DNA from: Escherichia coli | GTDB lineage: Bacteria > Pseudomonadota > Gammaproteobacteria > Enterobacterales > Enterobacteriaceae | DNA length: 64,000 nt | Assembly: GCF_003334405.1 (NCBI RefSeq) | Contig: NZ_QOWM01000002.1 | Reading direction: 5' to 3' (one strand) | In this document: one piece after another, positions 27,001-33,000 of the stretch | Layout of the letters: each line of letters starts with the position of its first letter | Position numbering within the stretch: position 1 is the first letter of the stretch | Made by a program: the position numbers

Positions 27001-30000
27001 ATAATGATTCTTATATCCTTGGTCCTGCTTAGCTAATCTTACAGATCGTTCTGGTTTATGTACCGTTTGAAGGATATTATCTATAATAAATTGTGATGTA
27101 TTATGTAGTTCATCAACAGGGAGATGATTACTGGCGATGAGGAAAAGGTTTTTAGCGTCGATCAACTCAATGTATAAAGTGTTCACTGCATTATTCTGGT
27201 TTATTCTTCCTGTAACGAAATAATCTGGCTTGAATCTGCTCAAGAATGAATTTTGAGATATGTGATCATTACAAAAATTTGTCGCAGCCATCGGATAGGT
27301 ATAGAGACCATCGATTTTTTTATTTGAAATGATTTGCACTAATTCCTGATTAAGTATTAATGGATCCAGTGTATTCAATGAAGTAGTGAAAGGGAATATA
27401 GCTATGGAATAGTCTGAAGTATTATCTTCATTAATTTTAGTTTTGAAAACCTGCCCGCTGAAACGATAACCTTTCCGGTAGATTGTTTCTATGCAACGAT
27501 CATAGCCAATTTTTTCAAAAATGCAGCGCAAAGAATAGATACATCTTGTCAGGGACTCGTCACTAACAATAATATTTTTCCATACTGATTCGATGATCAT
27601 ATCTTTCAGTACAACATGACCAGCGGATTCAAGTAATACTATTAATACACCTAACTCTTTCTGTGGAATATAAACTTGCTCATTTCCTTGAGTAAGAATT
27701 CCATCTTCCGTGAGCGTTAATCCCTCAAGAAAATGATATGAGAATTTATTTTCTAAGTCCATTAGTTAACCTCTATGAAAAAATTGGTTTCTTGCATCCT
27801 GCTTAAGCAATAGAAATTATGGCTATTCATATTTATGTGTCATTAACGCTACAGGAAATTACATTTGACATATCTATGGTTGTGTTCACTAATTTATCTT
27901 AGGAATTCAGTGATGTAATCTGAAATAGCCTTATTCAATTTTGATAAAGTAGATTGTTCTCTAACGCATTGAAAAATAATGATTTATAGTATGCTCTTAA
28001 CTGTTTTAAGATGCTGATTTAAGAAAACATAAGAGGTGCTGGTTATAGTGGTTAACTGCACTATAACCAGCAAATTTAACCAAATGATTGTAATGCTTAG
28101 CCATTATCTTCTGAATTATCGTTTAAGAGTTCAATATATGCCTGCGCTTTACTCTTAACACTATCATCCTCACAATTGTTAATAATGTGATAGAAACATT
28201 GCATTGCGTTATCGATATTTTTAGCCCCAATCTGACATTGACCCATACGATAAATAACTGAATAGTCATCATACGGGAAGTAATTGTAACTTAGTTTGTA
28301 AAGGTCATATGCTTGTTGATATTTCTTTTTGGGCTGACATACTGATGCAAAATCTTTTAGATACTCATGATTTTCGAACGCATAAATGCACAAGAATTTA
28401 TAATAAATTTCTGCGTCCGTTATATTACCCTTTTCATGGTAGTCGAATGCATATGCATATATTCTATCAAGGATATCAGGAGTTAAACCATGTAGTAATG
28501 CCAGATTTTCTCCTTTCGATAATGCGTGTATTAGTTGATTTGCCCATTCATCACTATTATTGAATATTTCAATTGTTTCTGTGCTCATAATATTCCTCTG
28601 TGATGTGTCTCGTGATGCCAAATTATTATTGATTGACTCATTGATATTTTTATATTTATCTTTTTTAAATTATGAGTTTTAAGCTTGCATTGCTTATGGT
28701 ATATTTTTCATTATTGGTAAAAGTACTGTTCACTACAAACTAATAACATCATTAGTTGTTTTACTAATATTCACCTTATTAGTTATCTTAATTACGACAT
28801 TACATAAATGCCTTAATGTGTATGACCTGGATTCATAGTATCAATTGCCATTTTTTCAATGAAAATTAAAAAGGGGATTTTTGAGAAGGGTAGAATGTCG
28901 TTTGTTTTTTTCTTTATTATGTCTGGTGACGCGGGGGGATAGAACGTCTGTGCATATAGTAGTGAATTTATTCAGGTCTACATTATTCTCTATTTTGGTC
29001 AGTTTTATGAGTTCATTTACAGCCATACTCATTAAATCATCTGTTATCGAAAATTTATATATGCTCATAGCAGATAATATTGCTTGCTGAATTATCTCTT
29101 CAGAAATATCCGCTATCTTTATTGACAAATCATGTGTTAGATATTTTCCTCCAAGAGATTCTTGTTCAATATAATTTAAACCAGACCCCATTGTGATTTT
29201 AACTGGATTAACGGATTTCTCTTCATTTTTCTTATTTTTGTTCTCCTGATCAGGAACTAATGGTTGCAGTGGTAGGCTATTATTAATATTTCGTGGCTTC
29301 ATTTTACATTTCTCTCATTTGATTAGAGCAAAATCCGAATTCGCAGCTTCTGATAATGTCAAATATCACCTTATGGAGACGTTACGTAGAATGACTATAT
29401 TTGTTATCGGCACATTAGGGGTATTAATTTTAGTATTGATGGAAGGTGATTATTGAACAGTAACATCGAGTCACGGTAAAAATGTGAGGTATACAATGGA
29501 CATTGAATTTTCGCAGATTCATGAAATGGTCTATATGCATGATATTGTAAATTCGGACTCGAAAAAGAAACCAAGGATTCCGTTAAAAAAATTCCTTAAT
29601 GCTGAGAATGTTCTCACGCAAACAACATCATGGACATTAAATTCAAGATATGTGAATGTTAATTCTGTCAATAAAGTCAACGTAAAGAGTAAAGTTAAAA
29701 ACAGTTATATCTCACGATCTGTCAATGATGAGTTTAGTTTAACAGATGATGAAATCAATTCTTTTAAAGAAACGTTAGTCCTTTCCTCTATTGATTCACT
29801 GAGTAAACTGGTTCTTAATAATCCTCTTTCTGTATTGTTTACATCGACTGTACGAAGGAATAATAATCGAGCTAAGATGAATGTCGAGTTCGACTCATGG
29901 ATTTGCACCAGATGTTGTTGATACATGATATTTTACATTGCAAGGAGATGTCTAAAATGAAAGATGTTGATCAAATCTTTGATGCTTTAGACTGCCATAT

Positions 30001-33000
30001 ACTGCGAGAATATTTAATTTTATTGTTTTATGATTAACGAGGTTCCATCTTTTTGTTATCTATTTTAGTTTACCTTGCACAATGCATTATTGCTCTGTTA
30101 CCAATGCTCAAAATAAAAGCATGCTTACCTTGCTTTAGTATATTATAGCTTACACTTTTTTCTGGAAAGACATAAAAATCAGGAATAAGTTGTGCAAGTC
30201 TATCATCATCAACTTGATCCATAATCTCAAACTTATTAACTTTCTTTGATGTTAAATGGGCTGTGTCATAGTTTTCAATCCATGTGTATTCAATATTTCG
30301 CCGTATTGATTTACTTTCTCTGTTACCTTGTTGCCAGGTTCCACTCAACGCAACAGTTCCTGTTTTATTTTTTTTGTTATACATAAAGTCGATGGTAAGA
30401 TTTGCTCGTCCCTGGTCATTAAAAATTACCCAATTTGCAGTGCATGTTTCGTTATATATCATTTTTTCTGCAGTGTAAGAATAGACAGTGAAGAGAATAA
30501 ACCCACTGATAAAAACTAAAATAAATAATAAGTTTTTTTATAATCAATCACGATTAACCTCACGGTAAGACAGGGTTAAACAGTTTGCCACTTCATGTTG
30601 GTTATAGTTTTTATTGCATGCCATAACAATCATCCCCGGTGAGGATTTTGCAAGAGGGAAGTATAACCACGGATGTTTTTTACAGTTAATCCCCGAATCC
30701 AGTATCCGTGTTTTATATTTATCGAACTCTTTCAACCCATCAATTGTATCTTCTGTTACATTAAAATGGCAGCCATTAATTTCCGCAACAGTCTTGTAAT
30801 CCTTGAAAAATGGCTTCGGGTGATTATTATTCCATAGCCAATATGCAGAATATGCGCCTATGACAAATGCGCTCAACATAATTAGATGACTTTTTATATG
30901 TTTGAGGATTTTGTTATTGAAATTCTTTGCGCCACCAATGCTCTCTTTGTATCCCGCATTAACTTTTATGGCAGGTGGGGCATTGTGTGTATGTGCGTCT
31001 GTTGACGAGTTTATTACATGATTTTGTATGTTAATGTCATTATGGATCTTGAATCCTCTTCTCGGCACGGTTGCAATTAGCGAGTGGGTAGTATCACCAA
31101 CAGCGCGAAATCCGCGTCTGATAATGGATATGTTCTGATATAACGTGTTAGTAGGCACACGCATACCTTCTTCTTCCCAGACTCTGGTGAAAAAATCTTG
31201 TTGTGCAACCACATCAGGAAAAGCTTCAAGTAGAAGTGATAAACATCGACTGGCTGGCGTTGTCAGAACGACGTTAAGATCGGCGTTATGTACCGATATT
31301 AATTTTCGGTGCTCAGGCCAGAACTCGATATTATCGTTAATAATCCAGTACATACGTCAATAAACACTAAATCAATCGAAATGGAGATCACATAGTTTGC
31401 TAAGTATATTGGTATTTACGGCATAAATATATATTAATTTTATATTTATCATGATGATTGAAATGAGGCTTTAATGTTGCAACGTAAAACTTTACGTAAA
31501 TTAACATGGTTAACATTTATGCCACTATTGTTTGTAAATTCATATTTCGTAATGCTTCTGAATTTTCGTGTGATGGTTTTAAATACTATGGTGTTTACTC
31601 TTGAGGGGACGGCCTATTTATAAAATACGGACATTTCAATAAATGCCCGTATAAACAGAGTATGATTCTGGCTGGTCGTTGAGTATCAATGTTGGACCGA
31701 ATGTGAACGAATAAATAATTCGTTTATTTTACCACCCATTCTCTTTTCGATTCGTTGCTTGTACGCGTAGATGCTACGGATATCCATATCCAGAACTTCA
31801 GCAATCTGATATGGATTATAACCAGAAACCATATACCCCATTATGGTGAATTCCATCTGAGTTAATGTGTTACCTCTGGTAAATGATAAATAACGACCAA
31901 TAAATAGTTGTCTGATCTTTTCATTGGCAACATCAAGACCATCATCATTATATATGACAGCAGATATTGCTGAGTTGTGTTTTCGCCAGTAATTAGCTAA
32001 CGATTGCATATTGCGGTCGCTGACTAAAACAATCCCCATGTCAGTACTTGCAAGATAGTCAATCCAGTCTTTTTCAAGGAATAGACGTAAAAAACTTACT
32101 GAAAAATCGACAAAAATATATCCGCTTAATCTCGCATTGTGGTTTTTTGTTAAGATACCTTCTACCACACCACGATTAAAATATGAACTTTCTTCGGGCC
32201 ACATACAAAAACACGAGTTTGCGCAATACTGCAAACGCGGTGACTCTTCTGGCATTATTTGGCAATGCATTGAGCAACTATTGCATGTAAGACTTTTATA
32301 ACGACTACAAAGCCCCATGTTAAGAACCTCCCTATCCGTATATAATTGCATAATTTCATTGGTTATTGATGATGTCAATACACCATGATTTTGTAATTTT
32401 GCCGGGAAAAATTGCGATTAATCTGTATTTGCTATAATTCTGAGTAAGGCATTTAAAAATGCATTTCTCGTTATCAAATATGATTATGTTTCACTGATTT
32501 AATCTTGCATGGTTGAGAGCGGTCCAGATAACTATCTCATGGTATAAGAATATCTATATCGCAAATTGTTTTTGAATGACCAGAAGATATCTTGCGAATC
32601 TAAGTTATGCATCTTAAATAGTCTTATTTAAGATGTTCAGATCTCTTTGTGTGTTTAACTAACTGATAATACTAGGATATGACGAGAGAAGTGATAGAGT
32701 GGAATAATAACAAATGAATATTATGAAAAATGGAATGGTTCAAAATTGTAGCAATTTTGAACCATCCACAACTGATATTAGCTAAAGAACATTACCGATA
32801 CGCACAGGATACCCACGATCAGCGTAATCAGATTTCCGATGGAACGCCAGGGTTTAAGCGCCGGGATGAGATACGTTGACAGCGTAGGCATGATGAAAAG
32901 TATCATGGCAATGAGCGGGCCGCTGATCGCGTAAATCATCGAAATCGCGTTCGGGTTAATGCAACAAACAATGAAGGTAATCAGCGATACCAACATAATT

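Follow-up and report, generated by a model that had tools for sequence, protein, structure and literature searches.

What, if anything, still works at the far end of a secretion island whose machine is defunct? The 64,000-nucleotide stretch of Escherichia coli DNA analysed here (contig NZ_QOWM01000002.1 of assembly GCF_003334405.1; hereafter the window) carries ETT2, the decayed island of the second E. coli type III secretion system (T3SS), beside a tRNA-Gly gene. A sequence-only reading had singled out positions 28856-32378, with the small open reading frames (ORFs) ygeF, yqeK and yqeJ and the regulator genes yqeI and yqeH, as the place where any unrecognised function would most likely sit. 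The ORFs exist and are AT-rich: GC content is 34.7% over this segment and 51.4% in the flank at 34000-64000. We consider it likely that this segment represents the known yqe/yge end of degenerate ETT2, made up of the regulator YqeH, a YqeI-YqeJ co-component sensor and the orphans yqeK, yqeL and ygeF, in a copy that has decayed further. The locus, its regulators and the pairing of YqeI with YqeJ are already in the literature, and the segment is largely ordinary. Best supported is a mechanism in which a ToxR-like membrane regulator works with a lipocalin-like co-sensor, alongside an EcpR-like regulator, all independent of the defunct secretion machine. The gene map, taken from the RefSeq annotation of the near-identical strain ETEC4073, is as follows for this segment.

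31686-32318, minus strand: yqeH, 210 aa, EcpR/MatA-like LuxR-family regulator
30544-31353, minus strand: yqeI, 269 aa, predicted ToxR-like membrane-anchored winged-helix regulator
30533-30539, minus strand: poly-A tract at the junction of the yqeI stop and the yqeJ start
30070-30522, minus strand: body of yqeJ, N-terminal membrane helix and periplasmic YqeJ_C domain, without a canonical start here
29957-30037, plus strand: yqeL, 26 codons, annotated in RefSeq
29496-29921, plus strand: yqeK, 141 aa
29303-29495: spacer between the divergent genes ygeF and yqeK
28905-28911, minus strand: run of seven adenines (A7) in ygeF, whose length sets the frame
28813-29302, minus strand: ygeF pseudogene, labelled "frameshifted" in K-12 and ETEC4073 by the Prokaryotic Genome Annotation Pipeline (PGAP)

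To judge from its domain content, YqeI is a ToxR-type membrane-anchored winged-helix regulator, in agreement with the ToxR/CadC-type label given earlier. A Pfam Trans_reg_C winged helix-turn-helix (HTH) covers residues 28-102 (E = 4.1e-9), among solved structures the best match is to the DNA-binding domain of ToxR (8b4b, E = 1.6e-7), and CadC is matched weakly; both PMC10269533 and PMC9214523 take the protein to be a transmembrane regulator. YqeJ, by contrast with the claim that it has no recognisable domain, is assigned to PF27292 (YqeJ_C) in precomputed Pfam matches; our own Pfam search gave no match, the copy searched not reporting this newer family. It also has a strong N-terminal hydrophobic helix at residues 5-28 and a published role. 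Kinch et al. 2022 (PMC9214523) described YqeI/YqeJ as a co-component system of the VtrA/VtrC type, modelled YqeJ as a lipocalin-like barrel, reported that the two periplasmic domains co-purify, forming a complex when co-expressed, and treated the pair as the orthologue of MarT/FidL of Salmonella pathogenicity island 3 (SPI-3). YqeJ is listed as the partner of YqeI in PMC10269533 as well. The yqeJ starts overlap the yqeI stop in both K-12 and O157, and the two genes share strong third-position bias and a ratio of nonsynonymous to synonymous polymorphism (pN/pS) of 0.09-0.30. Four periplasmic cysteines of YqeI (195, 224, 246 and 258) and two of YqeJ (37 and 158) are invariant across Escherichia, Kosakonia and Yokenella.

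It is reasonable to hypothesize, from these features, that YqeI consists of a winged helix in the cytoplasm, a single membrane span and a small periplasmic domain held by disulfide bonds, and that YqeJ is a membrane-anchored periplasmic lipocalin-like beta-barrel which would pair with that domain. VtrA/VtrC and ToxR/ToxS serve as the model for the proposed signal: a hydrophobic small molecule of the gut would bind the periplasmic heterodimer and stabilise or activate YqeI, and YqeI, from its place in the membrane, would control genes for adhesion and motility. Ligand and direct targets are both inferred here. The pair would behave as a unit independent of the secretion machine.

The known systems of this kind resemble the pair to different degrees. 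VtrA/VtrC, the bile-salt receptor of the second T3SS (T3SS2) of Vibrio parahaemolyticus, and ToxR/ToxS share with it the ToxR-type winged HTH, the single membrane span (predicted for YqeI), the small periplasmic domain and an adjacent, translationally coupled gene for an N-terminally anchored periplasmic partner. VtrA/VtrC is alike also in its T3SS neighbourhood, and a lipocalin-like partner fold and a heterodimer have been reported (PMC9214523). However, neither VtrC nor ToxS has detectable sequence similarity to YqeJ, and the YqeI/YqeJ cassette, unlike those systems, persists where the T3SS is gone. Salmonella MarT/FidL and E. coli O157 GrvA/FidL are, respectively, orthologue and paralogue of YqeI/YqeJ (Kinch 2022). 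The YqeJ/FidL group has a disulfide between N- and C-terminal strands, and both YqeJ cysteines are invariant here; MarT activates the neighbouring adhesin gene misL and GrvA activates LEE (locus of enterocyte effacement), whereas the E. coli yqe locus has no adjacent adhesin gene. The Yersinia pairs PsaE/PsaF and MyfE/MyfF are likewise co-component systems, each controlling an adjacent fimbrial operon, and YqeI/YqeJ-like pairs stand right after ecpA-E in Kosakonia and Enterobacter, although the Escherichia pair is not beside a fimbrial operon.

The second regulator, YqeH, has a GerE HTH at residues 151-195 (E = 6.6e-5), and thus the LuxR-type label given to it holds, but it can be made more precise. 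Residues 31-202 align to positions 3-179 of the 180 in the NCBIfam EcpR model NF047921 (E = 1.7e-20), and the E. albertii orthologue, 93% identical, is recorded with the Pfam family PF27348 (EcpR_N). Since the score against the EcpR model is 73.8 bits and the cutoff is 300 bits, YqeH is a paralogue of EcpR rather than EcpR itself. No autoinducer-binding or receiver domain was found in it with Pfam and NCBIfam, where response-regulator models match only the HTH (148-197). By these profile comparisons YqeH is an EcpR/MatA paralogue, not a LuxR of the quorum-sensing kind and not a response regulator; it probably acts as a stand-alone EcpR/MatA-like LuxR-family DNA-binding regulator. With classical LuxR and FixJ/NarL proteins it has the C-terminal GerE HTH in common, but not the sensory domains. 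With EcpR (MatA), the regulator of the E. coli common pilus (ECP), it shares an alignment over nearly the whole model, the EcpR_N plus GerE architecture and an effect of gene loss on motility and biofilm (PMC9014576). It differs from EcpR in scoring below the cutoff, in an N-terminal extension of 30 residues beyond the model and in not lying beside a pilus operon; the window contains no ecp genes. This N-terminus is rich in cysteine, with seven in residues 1-38 (C4, C12, C15, C19, C32, C36 and C38; 32205-32318), all kept in E. albertii, and may be a metal or redox site. Mutants of yqeH have been reported with phenotypes in motility, adhesion and biofilm (PMC7552227, PMC9014576, PMC11068852).

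When species-representative genomes were scanned with a YqeJ alignment, seven loci from other species came back. In 7 of 7 the gene just before the YqeJ-like one is YqeI-like, at 38-71% identity, and is full-length wherever the cassette has stayed intact. In E. whittamii (L015) and Escherichia sp. E1V33 (L014), yqeH, yqeI, yqeJ and ygeH are all intact; Escherichia sp. E4742 (L006) has the same layout, yqeH-yqeI-yqeJ-ygeH, with a frameshift in yqeH. These three loci yielded no T3SS genes, and ETT2 is apparently reduced there to the four genes between yqeG and actS. In Kosakonia oryzendophytica (L016/L021), K. cowanii (L018) and Enterobacter sp. EA-1 (L020), the cassette comes immediately after ecpC-ecpD-ecpE, the Kosakonia order being regulator-ecpA-ecpB-ecpC-ecpD-ecpE-yqeI'-yqeJ'. 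Together with the relationship of YqeH to EcpR, this position gives two independent ties to the common-pilus system, and the link between cassette and ecp was not made in Kinch 2022 or elsewhere in the literature searched. In Yokenella (L017), GGDEF and EAL genes follow the YqeI/YqeJ-like cassette.

The idea that yqeH-yqeI-yqeJ is an ecp operon that has lost ecpA-E was considered and rejected. Similarity of the Kosakonia head regulator to YqeH is confined to the HTH (33% over 58 residues), and that protein is itself not a member of the EcpR model, which leaves a simple deletion origin unsupported. A broader conjecture is that the trio lies outside the logic of the secretion island altogether, as an older module linked to adhesion or pili which senses a gut cue and sets ECP or other adhesins against flagella, a hypermutable poly-A tract at the yqeJ start uncoupling the sensor from the regulator in a minority of lineages; we regard this extension as unlikely.

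The further decay of this copy is seen at two homopolymers. The yqeI/yqeJ junction is carried by 3617 genomes, 2850 of which could be resolved by tract length. Eight adenines (A8), as in K-12, provide a GTG start (exact match in 2468 genomes), and nine (A9), as in O157, provide a TTG start in a frame other than that of A8 (300 genomes). Seven, as in the window, put a TAA in frame and leave no start codon (82 genomes). No ATG, GTG or TTG precedes the membrane helix in the window, and PGAP falls back on ATT. The yqeJ start codon has been lost here through a one-base contraction of the tract and, as a consequence, YqeI is probably made without its partner in this strain. The second case is ygeF. 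The frame at 28856-29302 proposed by the sequence-only reading is present, but translation and alignment show it to be a truncated product of 148 aa, the intact O157 allele encoding 163 aa. The window is two bases short of that allele beside the A-run, and ygeF is a frameshifted pseudogene in it.

Are the remaining genes, then, where unrecognised function sits? That expectation stands for YgeF, YqeK and YqeL, which are orphans after all searches; it fails for YqeJ, published in 2022, and also for the regulators, yqeI and yqeH knock-outs having phenotypes in avian pathogenic E. coli (APEC; PMC7552227, PMC9014576). The earlier listing of the cluster also needs amending, since yqeK lies on the opposite strand and the small yqeL, convergent with yqeJ across a 32-bp gap, had been missed. 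Its outer boundary at 32378 is probably no start codon: the TTG there is part of a TTGACA box resembling a -35 element, and the annotated ATG at 32318 is preceded by GGGAGG.

For YgeF and YqeK the absence of recognisable domains held up. Neither had a match in Pfam, NCBIfam, PADLOC or PHROGs, comparison with PDB profiles gave only noise (best E = 0.16) and a word-indexed search returned E. coli proteins only. A phmmer search of the two concatenated sequences against 1.84 billion representatives gave 47 matches, none beyond the level of Escherichia, the most distant at 51% identity for YgeF and 44% for YqeK. The profile and structure searches proposed earlier were thus carried out, with empty profiles for both proteins and models too poor to argue either way: from alignments of 10 (YgeF) and 7 (YqeK) Escherichia sequences, AlphaFold2 produced unusable models with mean predicted local distance difference test (pLDDT) values of 43.6 and 41.5, too low for fold searches to have meaning. 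By these comparisons both are Escherichia-restricted orphans with no detectable family or fold, and yqeK (with yqeL) and ygeF are best taken as fast-evolving orphan genes of that genus. YqeK has no transmembrane segment and has a cysteine cluster at its C-terminus. One base is missing from its A7 run (29585-29591; also written as T7) in APEC O78:H51 (L012), which shifts the frame. The yqeL gene was found in E. coli only, and was not detected in E. albertii or Escherichia sp. E4742.

The setting of these genes is itself common. Positions 28600-32600 are about 100% identical to ETEC4073, whose T3SS is partly deleted with multiple frameshifts, and 99.9% identical to K-12, and the segment is matched in 4124 of 5426 complete E. 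coli genomes, every time on the chromosome. It belongs to an AT-rich block spanning roughly 14000-33000, with 31-39% GC inside it and about 51% outside. The count of at least five regulator-like genes in the island is borne out by etrA, ygeK (with its internal stop), ygeH, yqeI and yqeH. The neighbouring features are these.

32778-34007, minus strand: yqeG, permease
32350-32378, minus strand: promoter-like TTGACA-17-AATTAT upstream of yqeH, a consensus match only
28097-28588, minus strand: ygeG, SicA/IpgC-type class II T3SS chaperone, immediately downstream of ygeF
28072-28037: terminator-like hairpin beyond ygeG
24764-25396: ygeK (EtrB), LuxR-type response regulator with an internal stop
20023-20523: etrA, regulator-like

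Promoter-like sites in the region are not commoner than in shuffled sequence, and an Rfam search of 27800-33000 gave no match. GadX chromatin immunoprecipitation (ChIP) peaks have been reported at yqeK, ygeF and ygeH (PMC4918353). In the spacer between ygeF and yqeK, at about 29355-29363, the window and K-12 hold a single copy of the 9-bp repeat TATCACCTT, whereas O157 and HS have 236 bp more (L002 20768-21003), between direct repeats of TATCACCTT; either a microhomology deletion or a small insertion could account for the difference. A lytic transglycosylase gene adjoining ygeK (25415-25917) is frameshifted in the window strain. Identity between E. coli and E. albertii is 96% for YqeG, 93% for YqeH, 64% for YqeI, 56% for YqeJ and 40% for YqeK, and 63% and 54% for YgeG and YgeH. 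Such a sharp rate boundary between genes, together with the diverged lineage L007, in which ygeF alone is highly diverged, points to a recombination mosaic.

Loss on this scale could mean that the whole segment is dead cargo, a silenced and decaying remnant whose ORFs are functionless here or generally. Besides the frameshift in ygeF, the missing start of yqeJ and the stop in ygeK, several T3SS genes are frameshifted, nearly all indels among nine strains compared are in homopolymers, the region is silenced by H-NS (PMC12460168), and ygeF, ygeG and yqeL are "essential" by transposon-directed insertion-site sequencing only, which would fit protein-coated DNA. This explanation is possible but rather unlikely, given that yqeH, yqeI and yqeJ are under purifying selection (pN/pS 0.04-0.30) and stay intact in species with no T3SS genes at the locus, that the 2468 and 300 genomes mentioned above retain a yqeJ start codon, and that the APEC knock-outs have phenotypes. 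The same homopolymers could alternatively be contingency switches, by which phase variation would flip the YqeJ co-sensor and YgeF between on and off states. The yqeJ start shows three tract lengths, and a start codon is available in two of the three frames. At least four haplotypes carry A7 (K-12-like, W, HS and APEC O78), and DH1 (A7) differs from MG1655 (A8) by no single-nucleotide polymorphism over 4846 columns. The ygeF run also varies: A7 (K-12 and the window) and A8 (strain W and APEC O78) break the frame, A9 on a K-12-type haplotype restores the 163-aa protein (P0066), and O157 strains have A5 or A6. However, AT-rich DNA is expected to hold such a tract, which at yqeJ simply encodes the Lys-Lys ahead of the membrane helix. 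A8 is by far the commonest length (2468 of the 2850 resolved genomes), the members of a clonal set agree in length, and homopolymer sequencing error is possible, O157 PV15-279 being one base shorter at both tracts. We consider switching very improbable.

The orphans raise two further explanations. YgeF, and perhaps YqeK, might be small T3SS substrates or chaperone partners, YgeF being bound by YgeG and secreted or regulatory. The gene lies directly upstream of ygeG, in an order retained in L007; the first 17 positions of YgeF have no acidic residue and are rich in N, S, P and Q; and a conserved LPLQPL motif has the hydrophobic i, i+2, i+5 spacing which we take to be that of class II chaperone-binding motifs. 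As effectors often do, ygeF evolves fast: no other gene of the cluster is as diverged, with 53% identity in L007, where YqeI is at 98%. The outcome that would have refuted the earlier reading, namely fragments of known T3SS genes, did not materialise, as no T3SS family matched YgeF or YqeK. In addition, the YgeF model is unusable, ygeF is absent from the E. albertii locus examined, which keeps ygeG and the prg/org apparatus genes, and is frameshifted in most strains sampled, and the acidic N-terminus of YqeK is unlike a secretion signal; a role as substrate or chaperone partner is improbable. About equally doubtful is that yqeK, yqeL and ygeF are chance ORFs in AT-rich DNA. Their third-position bias is weak or absent (p = 0.05-0.08 for yqeK and p = 0.33 for ygeF), they have neither homologues nor a confident fold, and yqeL and ygeF are missing from E. 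albertii. On the other hand, the 141-codon frame of yqeK is open in E. albertii at 40% identity in DNA of 33% GC and is present at the same position in L007, an excess of synonymous change is found in yqeK (pN/pS 0.29-0.59, binomial p = 9e-6) and ygeF (binomial p = 0.004), and residues 1-37 of YqeK are well conserved.

The interpretation of the segment as a regulatory end of ETT2 with a co-component pair and orphans remains the one we prefer, and several observations weigh against it. In a crude Kyte-Doolittle scan (window 19), the sole hydrophobic peak of YqeI, at 149-173, reaches 1.35, the usual cut-off being 1.6. YqeJ matched no PDB profile, VtrC and ToxS included; its lipocalin-like fold and its complex with YqeI are as reported in PMC9214523, and the ligand and direct targets are proposed by analogy only. 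The almost nil codon-position signal of ygeF suggests that this gene may already evolve neutrally. Silencing by H-NS was described in K-12, where the region served as a silenced "CHIN" fragment, and implies that it may be rarely expressed. Finally, an A5-to-A4 contraction in the yqeH-yqeI spacer (about 31566) is private to the window and absent from the eight strains compared, so that A7 at yqeJ could be a sequencing error; the assembly may under-call homopolymers at both places.

Taken together, the value of these results is a corrected annotation, in which YqeJ is the sensor partner of YqeI, and homopolymer indels have put ygeF and, in this strain, also yqeJ out of action. YqeK, conserved in length and fast-evolving, is an Escherichia orphan and a modest lead. 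The link of the cassette to ECP and its survival without a T3SS suggest where the targets of YqeI should be sought.

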